Source: Euryarchaeota archaeon UBA52 (GTDB lineage: Archaea; Thermoplasmatota; Poseidoniia; Poseidoniales; Thalassarchaeaceae). Taken from it: a stretch of DNA of 62,588 bases. The first letter of the stretch is position 1, and each line of letters opens with the position of its first letter. Below the pieces are notes generated by a model, which ran no database searches, was not told the DNA's origin, and was given only the letters and a program-made list of their open reading frames with translations. The stretch is taken from the NCBI GenBank assembly GCA_002505455.1, contig DAVB01000002.1, positions 1-62,588 of the forward strand. The letters are read 5' to 3'. The position numbers were made by a program, and so were the translations under genes. This document shows positions 15,815 through 25,007 of the stretch, in pieces.

Positions 15815-16657
15815 TCAGATTCCACCTGCGTGTAGCATCAAAAGTGCTGCTATGAACATGGTTGGAAGCAGGGCCTCGAATAGAAGATTGGCCCTCCTCA
15901 TTGGCGATTTGCGACGAAAATCCTCTAGCTGCTCTCCGACAATCTGATTCATTCTCATTCGAATTACGCTCATCACAGTAGCATGTATCTGAGCGGAGAA
16001 AGGTGCGAGAATGTTAGAGTCAAGTCCGCGCTTTATCTGTTTTACAACAGCGACGGCGATCGGATTTTTTGACAATAGGCCCGCGAAACCTGAGAAGATA
16101 CCACTCTCCTCTTCAGCTGTCTCATTTAGGTCGGCCTGCTGCAACTCATTAAGGAACCAAGATCTTCTGAAGTCTTGATTCAGATTCCACGACTTGAACT
16201 CCTCCTCGGCGAACACCCACATGCCCTCTAATCGAATGTGTGTCGCCTCCAAGAATGCTCTGAGTCTCGATGACCTGCGTATATCTCGAGCCAGCCACAC
16301 TACAAGGAATCCAGCGAAAAGAGGGTAAGATATCGGAGAGAGTGCGGATGCGTGTATTTCTCTGGCTCCTACCAAGGTCATCACAGGGAGGGCGATTATC
16401 ATGGGTGCGAAGAGGATGAATACTTCACTGAGAATGAAAGACCTGCCGAGCCTCTGAATCGAAGGCTTCAGGAATATCTCGCTCACATTCATCAGATTTG
16501 AGATGGTGCTTCTTTGCTCCATGTCATCATCGATTGATGTTGCAAGTCGTCGAAGTGGTCCGATTACCAAAATGATTCTGATTAGGAATGCGATGGCAAG
16601 AACGACCACCAAGTAGTCTCTGACCGTCTCTGGGGGGAATACTGGCAGTATTTGCAT
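15815..16657 (-). CDS. Hypothetical membrane protein (about 4 TM), 280 aa
   Basis: Long ORF filling the gap; hydrophobic segments at the N-terminus, middle and C-terminus; G-rich SD-like run upstream. Confidence 0.7.
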   Translation of the reverse strand: MQILPVFPPETVRDYLVVVLAIAFLIRIILVIGPLRRLATSIDDDMEQRSTISNLMNVSEIFLKPSIQRLGRSFILSEVFILFAPMIIALPVMTLVGAREIHASALSPISYPLFAGFLVVWLARDIRRSSRLRAFLEATHIRLEGMWVFAEEEFKSWNLNQDFRRSWFLNELQQADLNETAEEESGIFSGFAGLLSKNPIAVAVVKQIKRGLDSNILAPFSAQIHATVMSVIRMRMNQIVGEQLEDFRRKSPMRRANLLFEALLPTMFIAALLMLHAGGI

Positions 16658-16737: not shown

Positions 16738-17322
16738 TTATTCACTATTATGGGAGTCAGATTCCTGCATTTTTCTTCGTAATATTACGAATATGAGCAT
16801 TGATGATGCGAATAGCGCCAACAATGGCGCCAACAAGGCGATGAAAATCAGCGAGACTGAGGCGACGTCTTCGATGATGGAGAAAAATGGATTCGCCAGG
16901 CCAAGTGTGAACATCGAGGAAAGCCCTCTTCCGGCCACGGTGGCGGACTGGATTGACAGGGATGTGCCTCCTCCTGCGATAATTGCGAGGGCCCATTGGA
17001 CGGAAGGGTCTGCACCCTCCAAGGATATGGCGACTACTGATACCCCTGCTAGGCCTGCCATTGGGGTCGCGAGTGAGTCGAGCATGTTGTCCATCCATGG
17101 GATCTTATAGGCCAATATCTCGGATAGGGAAGCCACGCCCAGAAGTAGGATTGACACGTCCGATGAGAAAGCCTCGAATTCAGTACCATCTATATTGACG
17201 TCCAGGAAACCGAACCTCACCCACACAGCCATCAGGAATGGAGGCAGGAATACCCTGAATCCGGAAGCTGCGGCCAGGCCCAGCCCAGTGGACGCAGCGA
17301 TAAGCGCCTGGAAGGGGTCCAT
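16738..17322 (-). CDS. DUF4126 family membrane protein
   Basis: GLGLAAASGFRVFLP, EILAYKIPWMDNMLD, ANPFFSIIED match the DUF4126 pattern. Confidence 0.8.
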   Translation of the reverse strand: MDPFQALIAASTGLGLAAASGFRVFLPPFLMAVWVRFGFLDVNIDGTEFEAFSSDVSILLLGVASLSEILAYKIPWMDNMLDSLATPMAGLAGVSVVAISLEGADPSVQWALAIIAGGGTSLSIQSATVAGRGLSSMFTLGLANPFFSIIEDVASVSLIFIALLAPLLALFASSMLIFVILRRKMQESDSHNSE

Positions 17323-17371: not shown

Positions 17372-19420
17372 TTAAAATGCATCCTTGTGCCTTTTCCTTG
17401 AATGATCATTTGACCAATTATACGCGAGTTGGAGTATCTTGAGGAAGTCCCCCTGTCCGTCTTTCCGCATCCTGTCATGAAGTGCGTCGTTCTGGATGAA
17501 TACATCGCCCCAGATATTTGCCGCTGTTCCCTTTCCGCCCTTTGGCATGTCGAATACCTCGTCCAGAGTTGGTTCCAGCAAGGCTTTCCAGACTCTTGCG
17601 GGGTCTACTGCCATGGTCACCTCTACAATGATCTCGTCCGTGTTGAGGCCCGTACCAGTCTGCCAGCTGTCTTCACCCATATCAGCCAGGAACGGGAGGC
17701 AGATATCTGAGACTGAAAGTGCGGTGAGTGGGTCGGCCCCGGTCATCTCTGCGAATGCATCGCGCATCCTACCTCTGTCTGCTCCCTTGCTCCCGACGAG
17801 GGTTCTCATCTGGTCTATTGAGTTAGGCACTAGGAACCTGAGGTCTGTGAAATATACGAATGGCTTGCCGTCATCTGGAGCGAATATGTGCTTGAAGGGC
17901 GACTGGCCCGGTACCTCTCCGAGATCATCGAGCCTGTACAGCGTCTTCAGCGCGTTTGTTCCTATGGACTGTATGCAACGGCGTATGATACGCTCCGGTG
18001 CTGCCGAGACGTCATTGAAAGTGTCCATGTATTCGCTCATCGTCATGATATCGTAACCACGCACTGCCAGAATTGTGTGGACGTTCGGGCCCTGCACATT
18101 CTCGCCATCGACCATGGCTGAGCTTATCCACTTTGCACCTCTGCTGCTCTCGCTTCGAGCAACAAGATCTGCATATGCCGTGAACCTTCTGGATACTCTG
18201 TTCATGAAATCAGCCTGATCTAGCTTGGTGAACAGGGATGCAGTGAAGTTGGTCTTCAATGCGTGATCCGCGACTTGACTTGCATTCACACATGTGAGTA
18301 GATTTCCTTGGTCATCCGGGTAGACAACAAGGCGACGTCTCTTCCCTCCGCCTCCGAGTGTTCCAGTCTCGTTGCTTGTGAGATAGTATCCTAAAGCAGC
18401 TGTGACTTCAAACAGTCTTGCGTATTTGTCTTCATCGCTGGCTCCCCGTATCCATTCATCGATACCAGGTTCGACGAGATGGAATTCAAGAGGGACTAGC
18501 TCCGAACCGCCGCCGAACATTTGCCGCACGGTAGCGGATCTCATCATGCCCATCATCGTGTAGAGGGATGTCTTTCCTGTAGTGATGTAAACATCGGTAA
18601 TGCCATCCTCTCCAAATGAGGCTCTTCTGTCGGGCATGTTAACCAGGAGATTGAACGCGGTTGCGTTCTCCCTGTTACCATCCACAGCAGGCCATATCCA
18701 TGAGTAAGGTCTGGTCATCATGTAACCGCTGGCATCCTTTCCGAATCCTGCAGGAGAGTATCTTGTCCAGCCGAGCCTGTTGTTGAATGTGACGCCGCGA
18801 TGCATGAGCGATGGATAGTACACCTTGTCTTGTGGGTCGGATCCAGGGACTACGCCTCTATGTCCGAGCCCCCATAGGATTGGTTCCCATTCTGCATATG
18901 ACGAATCGCCCTTGCCCAGGAATGGATGTTGGTCGGATATGTTATTCTTCGGCTTTCCATTACTCGACAGAACTGATCCGCCCAGGCGATCTTCATCCCC
19001 CGTGGAGCAGAAAAATAGTGTTTGAGTTGTAGATACCTGCTTTGGTGTCCACATATTTGCATTGACTACGGTCTTCTGTCGGATAAAGTCCGCAGGGGTG
19101 TCAATTCGACGTTCGAACTTGAATCTCTGCGTATCGATCCATGACGAGCCTAGGAACAGATTGGTGTTCATCAATCGTGCCTTCCCTGGCCCAACGTACC
19201 TCTCAATTGGGTTGTCCTTAGCCTCATCATTGCCATCCAGACGGGCCCAAGGTCCTTCCATGGGTATATGCTTCAGGAATTTCTCGTGATCGAGTTCTTT
19301 GCTCTCAGCATCCTTTATGCTGTCTTGAATAGCATCCATCAGCCGGACATAAGTCTCCGAGGGGGCAATGGTCTTTGCCTTTCTCATTTCTGTGTTTGAT
19401 ATGCTTCTATGTTCCCACAT
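17372..19420 (-). CDS. Hypothetical soluble protein, 682 aa, no family recognised
   Basis: Long uninterrupted ORF, no signal peptide or TM. SD GAGGTG (19428-19433) 7 nt before the ATG overlaps the upstream stop codon. Confidence 0.85.
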   Translation of the reverse strand: MWEHRSISNTEMRKAKTIAPSETYVRLMDAIQDSIKDAESKELDHEKFLKHIPMEGPWARLDGNDEAKDNPIERYVGPGKARLMNTNLFLGSSWIDTQRFKFERRIDTPADFIRQKTVVNANMWTPKQVSTTQTLFFCSTGDEDRLGGSVLSSNGKPKNNISDQHPFLGKGDSSYAEWEPILWGLGHRGVVPGSDPQDKVYYPSLMHRGVTFNNRLGWTRYSPAGFGKDASGYMMTRPYSWIWPAVDGNRENATAFNLLVNMPDRRASFGEDGITDVYITTGKTSLYTMMGMMRSATVRQMFGGGSELVPLEFHLVEPGIDEWIRGASDEDKYARLFEVTAALGYYLTSNETGTLGGGGKRRRLVVYPDDQGNLLTCVNASQVADHALKTNFTASLFTKLDQADFMNRVSRRFTAYADLVARSESSRGAKWISSAMVDGENVQGPNVHTILAVRGYDIMTMSEYMDTFNDVSAAPERIIRRCIQSIGTNALKTLYRLDDLGEVPGQSPFKHIFAPDDGKPFVYFTDLRFLVPNSIDQMRTLVGSKGADRGRMRDAFAEMTGADPLTALSVSDICLPFLADMGEDSWQTGTGLNTDEIIVEVTMAVDPARVWKALLEPTLDEVFDMPKGGKGTAANIWGDVFIQNDALHDRMRKDGQGDFLKILQLAYNWSNDHSRKRHKDAF

Positions 19421-19431
19421 CTTAATTCACC

Positions 19432-19674
19432 TCAGAACTTGGTCTCCGGTTCCTCTTCAGGCTCTTCCTCTTTGGAACCGAATGGAAGAGAAGGCATCGA
19501 TTGGCCGCCTGAGAAAAAGAGCATCGCTGCGACTGCGAGAGAGCCTACTCCAAGCAGTATTTTGGCCATGTCGTCCGAGTCTCCAGTTACCACAAAGGCA
19601 TCGGCAAGAGCCATCGCGCCTATTGCTCCAGAAATTATGATTGGCATCATTTGCTTTTCATCCGCTTCGCTCAT
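19432..19674 (-). CDS. Small 2-TM protein with acidic C-tail, 80 aa
   Basis: Two hydrophobic helices (IIISGAIGAMALADAFVV; ILLGVGSLAVAAMLFF), tail EEEPEEEPETKF; leaderless start 24 nt from a TATA box. Confidence 0.75.
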   Translation of the reverse strand: MSEADEKQMMPIIISGAIGAMALADAFVVTGDSDDMAKILLGVGSLAVAAMLFFSGGQSMPSLPFGSKEEEPEEEPETKF

Positions 19675-19698
19675 TGTTACTCGTTCAGTTTGTCACTG

Positions 19699-19707
19699 TA
19701 TATATTA
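19699..19707 (-). promoter_or_regulatory. Archaeal TATA box for the 19674/19420 operon
   Basis: Minus strand reads TAATATATA, ending 24 nt before ATG 19674, canonical spacing for a leaderless transcript. Confidence 0.6.
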
Positions 19708-19755
19708 CCTGCCGCTGATGAAAGGTATAACTCGACACGTATAGTCATTGATTCA

Positions 19756-19781
19756 GAAATTGTGATACGAAATTACGATAT
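19756..19781. repeat. Imperfect tandem 13-bp direct repeat in the divergent promoter region (possible operator)
   Basis: GAAATTGTGATAC / GAAATTACGATAT, 10 of 13 positions identical. Confidence 0.3.
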
Positions 19782-19820
19782 CGGTGCGAACATCAAGAAC
19801 CGGTTATTGCTGGGAGGGTC

Positions 19821-20093
19821 ATGGCGGGGAGGTCCCAATCGATTAGAAAGGTGGGGTTCACCCTGCGTTCGTCCTTGTCTTGGATCCGTCCCATGGCTGC
19901 TGCCGTGATTGCTTATGCAGTACTTGGGTGGACCGAGATATGGCAATGGGGAGGGATATTCGTGGCGACGTATCTGATGGAGTTGACTGCGGTCTACCTG
20001 TCCCTGCCAACCGGTTCGATGGATGATGATTATGAAGAAGATTCTGGCAGCGGCTCTGGTAGAAAGATGCCGAAAATGAAAAAGAAGTTCTGA
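19821..20093 (+). CDS. Small 2-TM protein with acidic then basic C-tail, 90 aa
   Basis: SD GGGAGGG at 19812-19818; two hydrophobic segments; tail DDDYEEDSGSGSGRKMPKMKKKF; stop is 1 bp from the convergent WD40 gene. Confidence 0.7.
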   Translation: MAGRSQSIRKVGFTLRSSLSWIRPMAAAVIAYAVLGWTEIWQWGGIFVATYLMELTAVYLSLPTGSMDDDYEEDSGSGSGRKMPKMKKKF

Positions 20094-20094
20094 A

Positions 20095-21294
20095 TCAATT
20101 AGTGGCTAGCGAGATCAATACAGTCTGCTTTCTTGTTCTTCTGACGTTGAAGCCGCCATCTATCAACATCTGCTCAACTATATCCAACACTCGCTGTGTA
20201 ACATCTAATTGGACCCCCCAGTATGCAACTTCCCCTTCAGAATTCCCCGAGAAAAGGTAATCGCCATCATTACTGAACCTAACATCGTTGATCCTTCCTC
20301 TGTTGCCTCTCAGCGTCTTACGCTCAATGAAAGAATCTATGTCCCATATTCTAATTGTGTTATCCTTCGAACCGCTTGCTAGAAGCGTTCTGTCTGGTGA
20401 GATGGAAAGGGAGTATACTTCCCCAGAGTGACCGGAAAATGTCCCATTTATCTCGCGCTCTTGAGTATTCCATCGATGTATAAGCTTGTGATCAAATGCG
20501 ACCAATACTGACCGGTCATCATCAAGCATCACAAGAGAATTGATTGGTTTCCCGAACTCAGATGAGCCGGCGATATGAGTTGGATCGGGTAATTTCCAGA
20601 CATTTACTGAGCCATCTTGCCCCCCAGTAGCAAAAGTATTGCCTGTGGAGGAGAATGACAATGCAGTCACGGCGCCCTCATGTGCTCTGAACTCAGCATG
20701 CGTTTCTAGTGTCTTAATATTGGTTAATCTAACGTTTCCATTGTAGAGGCCGGAAGCCATCATCGACCCATCTGGGTGGATAGCTACGCTGAGTACTCCA
20801 AACCCGCCTAAATCCAATGTTTGGATAAGCTCGCCATCAGAAGTGCTCCACATTTGGACTGTTTTGTCTAGCGACCCACAAGCGAGAATGGACCTATCCG
20901 GCGTTGTTACCAATTGGCCCTTGTATGCAGTTTGGTCGAGTGTTTTCACAACGGTATCATCGATGGGGTCCCAGAAATGTATCCTTTGATCCATACCAAC
21001 CGAGGCACAGATGGAATCGTCGATGAAAGACACCGATGTGACGGGGTCTTTGTGAATCGTTTTAGAGACGAGGGGGCCACTTAGCATCACCTCGATCTGC
21101 TCATTAGGAGCTTGCAGAGTAGACAATCGTTCCTTCAACCTGAATATTCTGATGAAATCTAGTGCAGCCTGCTGCTCGTCCTGAGCTGCAGATTTTTTTT
21201 CCTCCTCAATTCTCTCCTTTATGTCGCCACTCAATCCTGCGAATGGATTTGGAAGGTTCTCTGATTCTTCATCTCGTGGAGGGTCTTCACTCAT
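20095..21294 (-). CDS. WD40-repeat beta-propeller protein (about 7 blades) with non-WD N- and C-terminal segments
   Basis: Repeats such as AHEGAVTALSFS..TFATGGQDGSVNVW and GHSGEVYSLSISPDRTLLASGSKDNTIRIWD. Start ATG 21294 (alternative 21321). Confidence 0.85.
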   Translation of the reverse strand: MSEDPPRDEESENLPNPFAGLSGDIKERIEEEKKSAAQDEQQAALDFIRIFRLKERLSTLQAPNEQIEVMLSGPLVSKTIHKDPVTSVSFIDDSICASVGMDQRIHFWDPIDDTVVKTLDQTAYKGQLVTTPDRSILACGSLDKTVQMWSTSDGELIQTLDLGGFGVLSVAIHPDGSMMASGLYNGNVRLTNIKTLETHAEFRAHEGAVTALSFSSTGNTFATGGQDGSVNVWKLPDPTHIAGSSEFGKPINSLVMLDDDRSVLVAFDHKLIHRWNTQEREINGTFSGHSGEVYSLSISPDRTLLASGSKDNTIRIWDIDSFIERKTLRGNRGRINDVRFSNDGDYLFSGNSEGEVAYWGVQLDVTQRVLDIVEQMLIDGGFNVRRTRKQTVLISLATN

Positions 21295-21317
21295 GCAGAT
21301 CAATCCGATTTTCAGAG

Positions 21318-24300
21318 TCAACCTTCATCCTCGGAACGGGATGATTCGAGTCTTTTTCGAAGACGGTCCCGGATTAGAGGGGCCATGAATAGGCCAACTA
21401 CAAGGAGGAGGGCGATGAAAGCACCGAATACTGCAAATGTCTCACTCACTTGGGCCCCCACCGACTCACATTCTTTGTTGTTATCGACATCACTCGGCAC
21501 GTCGTTGGAATCAAGCGGGTCTGATCTGCAACGTATCTCGTCTAGATCATCCCAACCGTCGCCGTCGTCGTCAAGATCTATCACTAACGTCGAGGGTATG
21601 CCTTCTATCAGGTAATCTGTGAGACCGTCGCCGTCGGTATCAAGGTAGGCAGCTGGGTCCGAGGGGAATGCATCTGGCCCACCAGAGCATATTCCAGGGA
21701 AGCTTGCGCTTCCATCGCAAACTTTGTCGCCATCTGAATCTGGATCAGAATTATCGCCTATTCCGTCGTTATCTGTATCCAAATACTCACTCGGGTCAGT
21801 TGGGAATGGGTCAGAGACGTCAGGGGTTCCGTCCATGTCACAATCAAGGGAGAGGATACATTCGGGATGCTCGTATTCGTTGGCAAGGCCGTCACCATCC
21901 GAGTCTGGATCAGAGTTGTCGCCTATTCCGTCATTGTCGAAATCGCTCCAATCATTGGGATCTTCTGGGAACTTGTCTTCTGAATTGAATACCCCGTCTC
22001 CATCCATATCTGGGTCTTCATCGTCGCAGATGTAGTCGCCATCTAGATCGTCTGGAGTATCGTTCGGATTTAGTGCGGAGGAATCGCATTTGTACTCCAT
22101 GCTGTCCGTATAACCGTCTCCATCGTCATCAGCATCCTCGTCACCATAGAAGGCCGGCCATTGAGGGTCGACTTGGTCTGCAAGGCGATCTTGATCTCTG
22201 TCCATTGGTATATTCGGATTGAAAGGCTCAGGGTCCTCGCCTCTAGAGCATACGCCAACTACCTCATTGCTCCCATCGCAGAATCCATCGCCATCCGAAT
22301 CTGGGTTTAGCGGATCTGTTCCCCGGTCAGAGGTCGAGATGTAGAATCCGGTTCCAGTTTCAACGCTGTCATCGAGACCGTCGCCGTCGTCGTCATAATC
22401 CTCAACGAAGTTGGCTGAAGCCCCATCAGGGAGATTATCCCATAGACCATCCCCATCCGTATCCATTGGAAGTGTGGGATCTACAGGATATGGATCTGGG
22501 CCCGCAGTACAGGACTGTCGATCGTAGGGGCCATCGCAAATACCGTCACTGTCAGTGTCCACGGAAGTTGGATTCGTTCCTGCTATGCTCTCATCCGTAT
22601 CGTCTACACCATCGTTATCGTCATCTGTATCAGAAAGATCTCCGACAGTATCGCCATCTGTATCGAGCCAATCGGATGGGTCCAAGGGGAAGGCATCCTC
22701 TGAGTCGCTGAATCCATCATTATCGTCATCGTCATCAGCTACTGCCGGACCATTTCCGTCGAAATCAGAGTCGGCTAACCCATCGCCATCCGTATCAACC
22801 GGGAAATTAGGATTCATTGGGAAAGGATCTGGTCCGTATGTACAAACCCCTGATATTTCGATTGGACCGTCGCAGAAACCGTCGTTGTCTGAATCAACAT
22901 CCAATGGAGAAGAGCCTGAATTTGCCTCTATTGAGTCGGAGAGGCCGTCATTGTCGTCGTCTGAGTCAGAAATTAAATCGGTATATGTTGAAAGATCATC
23001 TGGGACACTATCAGGCATGCCGTCAAGGTCAGAATCGGCAAGCACGGCTATCTCGATGTAGATGCTTGCTGTTACTCCTGAAGAATTGGTTGCGTCTACC
23101 TGATATGTCACAAGTTCAGTCACTTGGGTCGGGGTCCCACTTATGGTTCCATCAACAGGGGATATCTCTAGACCATAGGGGAGTGCTGGTGATACAGTCC
23201 ATGCCACTGCTGAGTTGTTGGTTGCGTTTCTTACAACCCAGAGATCACTTCCAGATGCGCTCTCTTTAGCATCGAAATACATGTCTCTATCCAATATCAC
23301 GTAACCTGTGCTCCGAGCTGATTCACTAGAGTGGGATCCTGGTCGAATATCTGCAAGCAAGGAGGCGGAGAAGTCATCTGTATTGACAACATGTGGCTCA
23401 TAGCCACTACTAGCCGATGATGCTGTGAAATAAGAATAGCCTTCATCGGTAGCGGTGAAGCCGCTGTATTGTCCCGGATAGGAAGATATCACGCCCGACG
23501 TAAGATCAGCAGAGAGCCACGATGTCGAGTTCTCAGGCGAGTGAAACCACAACTCATTTCCAGTTACACCATCATTAGCAGAAAATGCAATCATTCCGGC
23601 TATGTTGTGGAAGCCTTCTGAGACTGAGCCTGGATTGCTGCCCTGTGATCCTGGCCTTATGTCTGAATTACGCGTGCAGGTCTGATCTACAGAATTGAAC
23701 GACCACAATTCATTGCCATAAGCCTGATCTCTCGCGGAAAAGTAGATTCTGTCTCCGATAACTAATGGATCGTCTGAACCAGAGTTCGGTTGTCCACTTG
23801 AGCTTCCCTGCCAGATATCGCAAGCCAAGGTAGCTTCCCAGTTTTGAGATGTTTTGTCTATGGCCCAGAGTTCTGTCCCATAGGTTTGGTTACTTGCATC
23901 GAACACGATATGGTCCCCCACATCTTTGAATGGCAGCAAGTAACCTGGTAAACTCGGAGTATTTCCGGGATTGATGTCTCCGAGAAGGCTCGTGTGTCCT
24001 GTGAGCGTATCATGTACCCATGGCTCTATTCCAAACGAGCCATCATCTGCATCAAACAATAGCCATCTATCTGAAATGGGAACTAGACCGGAGAATACTC
24101 CCGGAGAAGAGCCAGATGATCCAGGGGATAGGTCGGCCACAATCTCTGCTGTTCCAGAGGTTGGATCGTAACTCCACAATTCACTTCCCGTTGTGCCATC
24201 TTCAGCATTAAACCATAATTTCCCAGACATGGGAATCAATCCGGTGCTGCTTCCAGGCTTACTTCCAGCACTGCCGGGGCGTATATCCTCGGTCATCCAG

Positions 24301-24863
24301 TAAGTATCATTCAAGGGGCTGTACGCCCATAATTCAGTTCCAGATGCAGATTCAGTGGCATCGAAGTAAAGAATGTGGTCAAGAATTGCGAATCCGCCAT
24401 ACTTGCCCACCTGGCCCCCGTAGGAACTTGACTGGGAGATTGTTGTGATCTCGGAGATTGAATTGGTTGAGGGATCGTATTTCCACAACTGTGACTTCGG
24501 AGTATTTGCATCGAAGTAGAGCATCCCATCCATAGCAACCATGCCTGAATTTTGGCCCAATGTGCCCGAAGAGGGGATATCTGCTACCTTCACAGGGGGT
24601 TCTGGCTGAGGACATATAATTGGAGGGGTGCAGTCTCCTTCTGCCTCACTACCAAATGCCGGTACTGCGTCAAAAGTCATAGGTTCGATTTGAGATCCTA
24701 CGACAACTATTGACGGATGGTTAAACTCCGCATGAATTCCCGAATCCGAGTGTGTTGATGCTGCGTTGTATTCCTCCAATGCAAGAGGGGCGGCAGAAGA
24801 GCCCAACATAATCATGATGAGTAGCGTCGTCAATGCTACACTGAGGGTATGCCTTCGGCCCAT
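21318..24863 (-). CDS. Giant surface protein (1181 aa): ELWxxDGT-like propeller, putative Ig (He_PIG) domain, thrombospondin type-3 Ca-binding repeats, C-terminal TM
   Basis: Nine ELW-type repeats (QLWKYDP, ELWAYSP, ELWSYDP, EPWVHDT, ELWAIDK, ELWSFNS, ELWFHSP, EPHVVNT, DLWVVRN); SPALPYGLEISPVDGTISGTPT; many DxDxDG repeats; TM VFGAFIALLLVVGLFMA plus a basic tail. Confidence 0.88.
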   Translation of the reverse strand: MGRRHTLSVALTTLLIMIMLGSSAAPLALEEYNAASTHSDSGIHAEFNHPSIVVVGSQIEPMTFDAVPAFGSEAEGDCTPPIICPQPEPPVKVADIPSSGTLGQNSGMVAMDGMLYFDANTPKSQLWKYDPSTNSISEITTISQSSSYGGQVGKYGGFAILDHILYFDATESASGTELWAYSPLNDTYWMTEDIRPGSAGSKPGSSTGLIPMSGKLWFNAEDGTTGSELWSYDPTSGTAEIVADLSPGSSGSSPGVFSGLVPISDRWLLFDADDGSFGIEPWVHDTLTGHTSLLGDINPGNTPSLPGYLLPFKDVGDHIVFDASNQTYGTELWAIDKTSQNWEATLACDIWQGSSSGQPNSGSDDPLVIGDRIYFSARDQAYGNELWSFNSVDQTCTRNSDIRPGSQGSNPGSVSEGFHNIAGMIAFSANDGVTGNELWFHSPENSTSWLSADLTSGVISSYPGQYSGFTATDEGYSYFTASSASSGYEPHVVNTDDFSASLLADIRPGSHSSESARSTGYVILDRDMYFDAKESASGSDLWVVRNATNNSAVAWTVSPALPYGLEISPVDGTISGTPTQVTELVTYQVDATNSSGVTASIYIEIAVLADSDLDGMPDSVPDDLSTYTDLISDSDDDNDGLSDSIEANSGSSPLDVDSDNDGFCDGPIEISGVCTYGPDPFPMNPNFPVDTDGDGLADSDFDGNGPAVADDDDDNDGFSDSEDAFPLDPSDWLDTDGDTVGDLSDTDDDNDGVDDTDESIAGTNPTSVDTDSDGICDGPYDRQSCTAGPDPYPVDPTLPMDTDGDGLWDNLPDGASANFVEDYDDDGDGLDDSVETGTGFYISTSDRGTDPLNPDSDGDGFCDGSNEVVGVCSRGEDPEPFNPNIPMDRDQDRLADQVDPQWPAFYGDEDADDDGDGYTDSMEYKCDSSALNPNDTPDDLDGDYICDDEDPDMDGDGVFNSEDKFPEDPNDWSDFDNDGIGDNSDPDSDGDGLANEYEHPECILSLDCDMDGTPDVSDPFPTDPSEYLDTDNDGIGDNSDPDSDGDKVCDGSASFPGICSGGPDAFPSDPAAYLDTDGDGLTDYLIEGIPSTLVIDLDDDGDGWDDLDEIRCRSDPLDSNDVPSDVDNNKECESVGAQVSETFAVFGAFIALLLVVGLFMAPLIRDRLRKRLESSRSEDEG
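21739..21938. repeat. Intragenic 35-bp direct repeat (21739-21773 and 21904-21938) encoding TSP3 units
   Basis: 31/35 identical; all four differences are synonymous and both copies encode DNDGIGDNSDP(D). Confidence 0.8.
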
Positions 24864-24871
24864 ACCCTCAG
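24841..24871 (-). promoter_or_regulatory. Perfect 11-bp inverted repeat covering the start codon of the 21318..24863 gene
   Basis: mRNA sense: CTGAGGGTATG-GGCCGAAGG-CATACCCTCAG; the ATG and GAGGG are in the 5' arm. Confidence 0.55.
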
Positions 24872-25007
24872 CCAGATTGCTCTTCCTCAAAAATGCGGTG
24901 CCGATGTCAACGTGTAAATACGGAGTTAATGATTCACTTACTTTATTCGGGTGTTATCCCACATTTTGATGGAAGGCATCATTCACTTTACTCGGATGTG
25001 AATCTAC

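Follow-up and report, generated by a model that had tools for sequence, protein, structure and literature searches.

A membrane protein ending in Lys-Phe is encoded directly upstream of a large, slowly evolving soluble protein in Marine Group II archaea: a possible tether-hub system

FtsZ carries a short conserved C-terminal peptide on a long, variable and disordered linker, and ZipA consists of an N-terminal transmembrane (TM) anchor and a long charged linker. In encapsulin operons, the cargo proteins possess a flexible linker and a short C-terminal targeting peptide, which is common to different proteins; in eukaryotes, C-terminal dilysine (KKxx) signals on membrane proteins are bound by the COPI coat. 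Here we describe a pair of neighbouring genes which resembles each of these systems in part and which occurs in Poseidoniales (Marine Group II, MG-II), which are among the most abundant archaea of the surface ocean. The pair was analysed in contig DAVB01000002.1, whose 62,588 nucleotides (nt) are referred to as the window (the corresponding genome is 85% complete), and compared among 151 Poseidoniales genomes. The larger gene (17372-19420, minus strand) encodes a protein of 682 amino acids (aa) starting with MWEHR, the smaller one (19432-19674, minus strand) lies directly upstream and encodes an 80-aa membrane protein that ends in Lys-Phe (KF). We propose, with a probability of about 50%, that the two products constitute a membrane tether and a cytoplasmic hub which dock through a C-terminal KF hook; in the genus of the window, a second tether would be the third component.

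FtsZ together with ZipA, FtsA or SepF is similar to this pair in that a short C-terminal peptide on a variable linker keeps a soluble and slowly evolving protein at the membrane, the docking being presumed in our case. However, the polarity is reversed: peptide and linker are found here on the membrane anchor and not on the soluble protein. Moreover, neither sequence nor profile comparisons relate the large protein to FtsZ, and two canonical FtsZ genes are already present in the genome of the window. As in encapsulin operons, the gene directly upstream of a large conserved protein bears a linker and a short C-terminal peptide shared by different proteins. In contrast, the "cargo" is here integral to the membrane and consequently cannot be encapsulated; in addition, no match to the HK97 fold exceeded a probability of 0.15, and the large protein has about twice the size of encapsulin shell proteins. 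The analogy to COPI and KKxx signals lies in a basic motif at the presumably cytosolic C-terminus of membrane proteins, which would be read by a soluble assembly. Here, however, the motif has a terminal Phe, the organisms belong to another domain of life, and the proteins are not homologous; a WD40 neighbour, whose similarity is generic (25-28% identity), exists only in the genus of the window and in one genome of a further family (f2). The pair fits no known family or system, and its function is one that we infer.

In the window, the 80-aa protein comprises a TM hairpin with two clear hydrophobic segments, the motif SLPFGS, an acidic linker (EEEPEEEPE) and the C-terminus T-K-F; its gene recurs at each of the 15 loci compared for the genus. 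The 3' end of the gene reads AAG TTC TGA, and the TGA (19432-19434) lies within the Shine-Dalgarno (SD) sequence TGAGGTGA (19427-19434, minus strand), which is separated from the ATG of the large gene by a spacer of 11 nt; the complete junction spans positions 19421-19434. The same arrangement was found across genera: In 57 distinct junctions, TGA-GGTGA is followed by a gap of 9-12 nt and by ATGTGGGAACAT. This conservation points to a translational coupling of the tether and the large gene. A second, divergently encoded tether of 90 aa (19821-20093, plus strand) consists of a hydrophobic hairpin, SLPTGS, an acidic stretch (DDDYEED) and the C-terminus RKMPKMKKKF. The conserved N-terminus M[AS]GRS of this protein speaks for the ATG at position 19821 as the start codon. 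Two KF genes are found in 15 of 15 loci of the genus, namely the upstream gene of 79-80 aa (...EPKF or ...ETKF) and the divergent one of 90-114 aa (...LPKxKKKF). Judged by SLPxGS, the acidic stretch and KF, which are common to both, the two proteins are paralogues. The divergent gene is specific to this genus and absent from the loci of Poseidoniaceae.

A preliminary description of the locus, derived from the letters of the window, had already placed the three open reading frames (ORFs; 682, 80 and 90 aa) at these positions and on these strands, and had noted the SD sequence overlapping the 80-aa stop codon, the KF ends of both small proteins and the absence of a TM segment from the large one; our analysis reproduces all of these features. 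Its assignment of two TM segments to each small protein holds for the 80-aa protein, whereas the segments of the 90-aa protein are weaker and reach a hydropathy peak of only 1.4. The proposed three-gene module is reduced to a core of two genes, as the divergent gene is restricted to one genus.

For a survey of the partners, 124 loci were compiled, which contributed 85 distinct upstream proteins. The gene directly upstream on the same strand always encodes a small membrane protein, whose N-terminal part forms a TM hairpin and which bears an acidic linker of low complexity. The length of these proteins varies between 71 and 396 aa and that of their tails between 16 and 287 aa (median 96), about 35% of the tail residues being Asp or Glu. 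K-F-COOH is the end of 79 of the 85 proteins; it usually occurs as [K/R]KKF, preceded by a Pro 5-7 residues ahead of the end, and most tails are polybasic with a median of three Lys or Arg among the last six residues. Genome-wide, five of 5489 ORFs of at least 60 aa end in KF, and two of these five are the neighbours described above. The partners are thus not the fixed micro-proteins which had been assumed initially, all the more since the tail is shared by further membrane proteins, which reach up to 512 aa.

The terminal codons allow one to distinguish selection on the protein from selection on the nucleotide sequence. Among the 57 distinct junctions, Phe is encoded 30 times by TTT and 27 times by TTC, and Lys 48 times by AAA and nine times by AAG. 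Furthermore, KF ends were found on genes that do not precede the large gene: the divergent 90-aa gene of the window, the second upstream gene in genus g19, and the downstream gene in genus g22. As synonymous Phe codons are used and KF is kept in genes without a large gene after them, these terminal codons show that selection on the KF end acts at the protein level. On the same grounds, the possibility that KF is a by-product of the SD sequence was ruled out.

The proteins bearing the hook differ considerably in their architecture. In g19 (loci L031-L033), the gene upstream of the adjacent 71-aa partner encodes a KF protein of 432-512 aa, which is composed of a TM segment, an ER/K-rich helix, a globular domain of about 130 aa, EP/PE repeats and the end ...NIDRKF; the globular domain (motif LMWNNFNDLDLHVVCPSGE) did not match any Pfam family. 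In g22, the product of the gene directly downstream of the large gene ends with KKKF. In a tether of 396 aa from g17 (L036), the TM hairpin is followed by a pair of EF-hands (PF13499, 36.7 bits) and then by an acidic linker of about 190 aa; the EF-hands hint at a sensitivity of this tether to Ca2+. By the criterion of these domain arrangements, the body of the tether is modular.

In order to determine co-occurrence, a profile was built from the conserved hairpin of the Poseidoniaceae-type partner and searched in the 151 genomes. The partner is a single-copy gene in 55 genomes, 53 of which also possess the large gene; the remaining two are contig-edge cases. Wherever both genes lie on one contig they are adjacent, and among the 151 genomes there is no other one with the partner and without the large gene. 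A large gene joined to a gene for a KF-tailed membrane protein was found in every carrier genus of the window's own family (f1, Thalassarchaeaceae) and of Poseidoniaceae (f3), which answers a question that the preliminary description had raised about linkage in related genomes.

The large protein has a pI of 5.7 and no hydrophobic segment (the maximum hydropathy in a 19-aa interval is 1.16), and its gene is single-copy in the genome of the window. It had been regarded as an orphan; this does not hold, as its relatives form more than 150 clusters at 65-68% identity, all of them annotated as "hypothetical" and originating from metagenome bins of Poseidoniaceae or Poseidoniales. An exhaustive phmmer search over 1.84 billion representative proteins yielded a single 50% cluster of full-length proteins together with fragments. 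P0194, the only outside match, is a low-complexity repeat protein and was discarded as spurious. Searches for remote relatives which started from the f2 homologue (46% identical) or from a profile of the conserved core (residues 100-440) likewise yielded fragments only. The large protein did not match any entry of Pfam, NCBIfam, PHROGs or PADLOC, nor of the PDB by sequence or by profile; for the micro-proteins, the same libraries gave merely sub-threshold noise such as EccD at an E-value of 0.004. Consequently, of the suspected undescribed system of one soluble subunit with small membrane partners, the linkage and the lack of a family match are corroborated, whereas the notion of a fixed three-gene unit is not. 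A Poseidoniaceae-specific module of 99 uncharacterised families is mentioned in general terms in the literature (PMC9258230); no other mention was found there.

Several short fragments of the large protein are located on very long contigs, namely P0125 (282 aa, on a 1.9-Mb contig), P0236 (229 aa, on a 615-kb contig of Thalassarchaeaceae), P0222 and P0227. Given the length of these contigs, they are not truncations at contig edges; they could be pseudogenes or frameshifts caused by errors of long-read assembly.

The large gene occurs in 65 of the 151 genomes and in nine of 22 genera. The carriers are most Poseidoniaceae, including the original MG-II genome (CM001443), and one genome of f2. Among Thalassarchaeaceae, the gene is confined to the genus of the window, and within Poseidoniaceae most of genus g17 lacks it, as does g20. 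When 21 cluster representatives (the f2 copy among them) are compared, 173 of the 682 residues are invariant, with the highest density between residues ~120 and 420. Between the genus of the window and Poseidoniaceae, the large protein shows 64-69% identity, compared with 60-61% and 68% for the two FtsZ paralogues; within the genus, the values are 95% for the large protein and 85-93% for FtsZ. The large protein evolves about as slowly as FtsZ, the outlier being the f2 copy with 46% identity versus 64-71% for FtsZ. In a maximum-likelihood tree, the copy of the window's genus, which belongs to the Thalassarchaeaceae side, is nested within the diversity of Poseidoniaceae (support 93/89). This nesting and the absence of the gene from the other sampled genera of f1 suggest that the gene was acquired long ago by lateral transfer from Poseidoniaceae or, alternatively, was lost many times. 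In every lineage, the G+C (GC) content of the gene tracks that of the host.

For structure prediction, the family offers about 21 clusters at 90% identity. A full-length AlphaFold2 model based on 35 homologues reached a predicted local distance difference test score (pLDDT) of 44 and was unusable for the N-terminal 430 residues. When a more diverse alignment with 28 rows was used for residues 296-682, the resulting model of an alpha/beta region had a pLDDT of 80.6 and a predicted template modelling score (pTM) of 0.84.

In the tether-hub model, the small upstream protein would insert into the cell membrane as a TM hairpin, and its acidic, probably disordered linker would project into the cytoplasm and hold the tail off the membrane surface. 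The extreme C-terminus, ...[K/R]-K-F-COOH, is the putative docking hook for the ~680-aa soluble protein, which would thereby be attached to the membrane on its inner side. Coupled translation from one message would deliver tether and large protein to the membrane in matched amounts. Rather than having a catalytic role, the large protein would presumably be a hub or scaffold, possibly an oligomeric one, which collects KF-tailed membrane proteins. As the hook is shared by several membrane proteins (the two paralogues in the window's genus, the 432-512-aa protein of g19 and the EF-hand version of g17) and as the length of the linker varies about 18-fold, such a role appears likelier than that of a machine in which distance is critical. 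Speculatively, the basic tail may land on the invariant acidic stretch E.G.DE......DED.Y.R.FE (residues ~317-338), which lies in helices that were modelled with confidence.

Several observations weigh against this model. The immediate partner in g19 ends in NKH and that in g22 in VKI instead of KF. The upstream protein of the most divergent copy of the large gene, the one of f2 with 46% identity, has one TM segment and no KF end. The module is dispensable: most of g17 lacks it, and so do g20 and every other genus of f1. Finally, His, Asp, Glu, Arg, Lys, Ser and Thr abound among the invariant residues between positions 120 and 420, a composition that fits an enzyme as well as a scaffold. The main rival explanation regards the large protein as an enzyme. 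In this case, the tether would either recruit it to a membrane substrate such as a lipid or an envelope precursor, or would itself be a substrate or regulator, for example by tail processing, tail modification or pseudo-substrate inhibition. We consider this possible, though somewhat unlikely. The densely spaced invariant polar residues, which include those of a catalytic type (H165, GH.G.V..SDP, HR.V, GFGKD, T.GKTS, PLE.H, DED, TKLD.ADF), would fit an enzyme equally well; the gene is single-copy, and dispensability in some genera is often seen for accessory enzymes. However, neither sequence, profile nor fold led to an enzyme family, be it a housekeeping enzyme or another one. The stretch most similar to a Walker A motif ([AG]xxxxGK[ST]) is DVYITTGKTS, in which Val replaces the first Gly/Ala, and no P-loop family profile of Pfam or NCBIfam matched the protein. 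Moreover, a hook common to several unrelated membrane proteins suits a hub better than a dedicated substrate. A further explanation holds that the KF tail is unrelated to the large protein and serves as a signal for topology, membrane binding or turnover, the two genes merely sharing an operon. The polybasic ends could bind acidic lipids, and the large gene of f2 has no KF neighbour; yet the tail EEEPETKF of the window's genus contains a single Lys, which identifies K-F-COOH and not the polybasic charge as the conserved feature. Such an independent tail is improbable, given that the KF-ended membrane proteins of the genome lie essentially only beside the large gene, that partner and large gene strictly co-occur, and that the different hook-bearing proteins all adjoin the large gene.

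The structural model raised the question of whether the C-terminal half belongs, as a highly divergent representative, to the tubulin/FtsZ superfamily; the protein would then form nucleotide-dependent filaments under the membrane, with a polarity of tethering reversed in comparison to FtsZ and its anchors. A Foldseek comparison of residues 296-682 with the PDB ranked gamma-, alpha- and beta-tubulin, TubZ and OdinTubulin first, with E-values of 2.5e-4 to 1e-3, probabilities of up to 0.98 and about 390 collinear columns spanning the model; tubulins had also been ranked first with the poor full-length model. The TM-scores, however, were 0.26-0.32 at a root mean square deviation of 14-15 Å, which is below the value of 0.5 that marks a global fold match. 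The GTP-binding signature GGGTG[ST]G of the T4 loop, which is present as GGGTGTG or GGGTGSG in 23 of 23 FtsZ/tubulin-family ORFs of Poseidoniales, is absent from the large protein; Pfam Tubulin (PF00091) and FtsZ gave no match at E-values of up to 1, and hhalign of the large-protein family (A2, A3) against the alignment of the Poseidoniales FtsZ/tubulin-family ORFs resulted in a probability of 0.1%. In addition, the large protein has an extra N-terminal region of about 300 residues. Due to the low TM-scores, the missing GTP motif, the lacking Pfam match and the negative hhalign result, membership in the tubulin/FtsZ family was ruled out, and we regard even a very divergent relationship as quite unlikely. 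Other weak matches of the models are IspF, RusA and PurM/FGARAT, which share, in the SCOP classification, the chorismate-mutase-like alpha/beta fold of the C-terminal domain of tubulin. This common fold suggests that the tubulin signal reflects a resemblance of a sub-domain or of topology, not membership. A related conjecture, which we consider rather unlikely, is that the ~680-aa protein could be the building block of a new sub-membrane skeleton or coat, either an extremely divergent tubulin-like polymer or a new fold, into which modular anchors would plug via the Lys-Phe-COOH hook. Independently of the large protein, a third divergent tubulin/FtsZ-family ORF of 302-337 aa with GGGTGTG or GGGTGSG was observed beside the two canonical FtsZ genes in five genomes (L151-L155 in G153, G155, G009, G003 and G004); it was not found in the 85% complete genome of the window. 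Among the ALTERNATIVES tested, a viral or mobile origin, a defence system and an archaellum link were not supported, while lateral transfer is suggested by the tree. A mobile, virus-derived or anti-virus defence module is very unlikely. It could account for the patchy genus-level distribution and for the nesting in the tree, and the poor full-length model gave weak encapsulin matches (probability at most 0.15), which did not recur with residues 296-682 and which are not accompanied by a capsid or encapsulin match in Pfam or PHROGs. On the other hand, the large protein had no match in PHROGs, BFVD or among the PADLOC defence models, which did not match the two micro-proteins either, and no copy exists on 2.9 million viral contigs of IMG/VR. 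There is no integrase near the module in the window, the GC content follows that of the host genome, the gene is single-copy among housekeeping genes such as thermosome and purH, and its FtsZ-like conservation is unlike that of fast-evolving defence genes. For these reasons, the domesticated viral module considered in the preliminary description is not supported. Neither is its other suggestion, an effector with a pilin/holin-like pair, since features of lytic proteins or pilins were not seen and the conservation of the large protein is close to that of FtsZ.

The tether-hub pair of the window is preceded by a promoter block (19692-19722, minus strand), which was deduced from an alignment of nine loci of the genus and contains the TATA box TAATATATA (19699-19707, minus strand) together with upstream bases resembling a B recognition element. 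The end of the box is 24 nt away from the ATG of the 80-aa gene, as had been reported initially. A block of ~31-35 nt around the box is nearly identical in eight of the nine loci, while the rest of the intergenic DNA has diverged; the ninth locus (L026) retains the TATA core alone. The conserved block probably acts as an archaeal promoter, and by the usual archaeal spacing the distance from box to start codon implies that the transcript of the 80-aa gene would be leaderless or nearly so. The GC content of the large gene, which had been thought to be raised, is 0.511 compared with 0.493 for the genome; this corresponds to the 71st percentile of long ORFs and is not significant. Two further genes follow on the minus strand: 49 nt past the large gene, a DUF4126 membrane protein is encoded (16738-17322; Pfam DUF4126, E-value 1.8e-37), and downstream of it a 280-aa membrane protein (15815-16657). 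Both keep their position in 14-15 loci, exclusively in the window's genus; they may be co-transcribed with the large gene and do not belong to the universal core.

On the other side of the module, the window contains a WD40 beta-propeller gene (20095-21321, minus strand, ~410 aa), which is conserved in 15 loci of the genus, and a gene for a secreted or anchored protein of 1190 aa (21318-24890, minus strand) with many Asp-rich repeats of a calcium-binding type (DxDxDG-like) and a C-terminal TM segment, the former "giant adhesin". A WD40 gene also adjoins the module in the f2 genome (L030, 4833-6089, plus strand), there on a different side. It was rejected as a member of the module, because the 25-28% identity of the two cases reflects the generic similarity of repeats. 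A wider conserved operon was ruled out as well, since the remaining neighbours are kept only within particular genera; these are the PilT/KH ATPase, the thermosome, a tail-anchored ER/K-repeat protein and, in the window's genus, the WD40, DUF4126 and 280-aa proteins. In about one third of the loci (L001, 3836-5182 and 8088-9689, and 40 other loci of Poseidoniaceae), a PilT-like KH-domain ATPase is encoded upstream and a thermosome subunit downstream on one strand. The tail-anchored protein, which is encoded just downstream of the large gene in L003 (8074-8916, plus strand) and 35 other Poseidoniaceae loci, has a C-terminal TM segment, no KF end and an EEARLAEEARL repeat that is probably a single alpha-helix acting as a spacer. 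Archaellin (PF01917) is absent from five of five sampled genomes of the window's genus (G000, G009, G059, G083, G097) and present in all sampled genera of Poseidoniaceae and in five other genera of the window's family. This phylogenetic profile excludes a link to the archaellum: The window's genus has the module without archaellin, and the five other f1 genera show the reverse.

To our knowledge, Marine Group II archaea have never been cultured, and their cell biology is essentially unknown. The gene pair is one of the slowest-evolving lineage-specific features of these organisms, and it comes with a simple rule that can be tested, namely the KF-COOH hook on membrane proteins. If the weak resemblance to tubulin were real, a very divergent branch would be added to the cytoskeletal superfamily. 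If the model of hook and hub is true, it would introduce a new protein-protein docking motif and, in a group of global importance, a new membrane-associated machine; the tail peptide would then be a handle to pull the complex from environmental or heterologous material.

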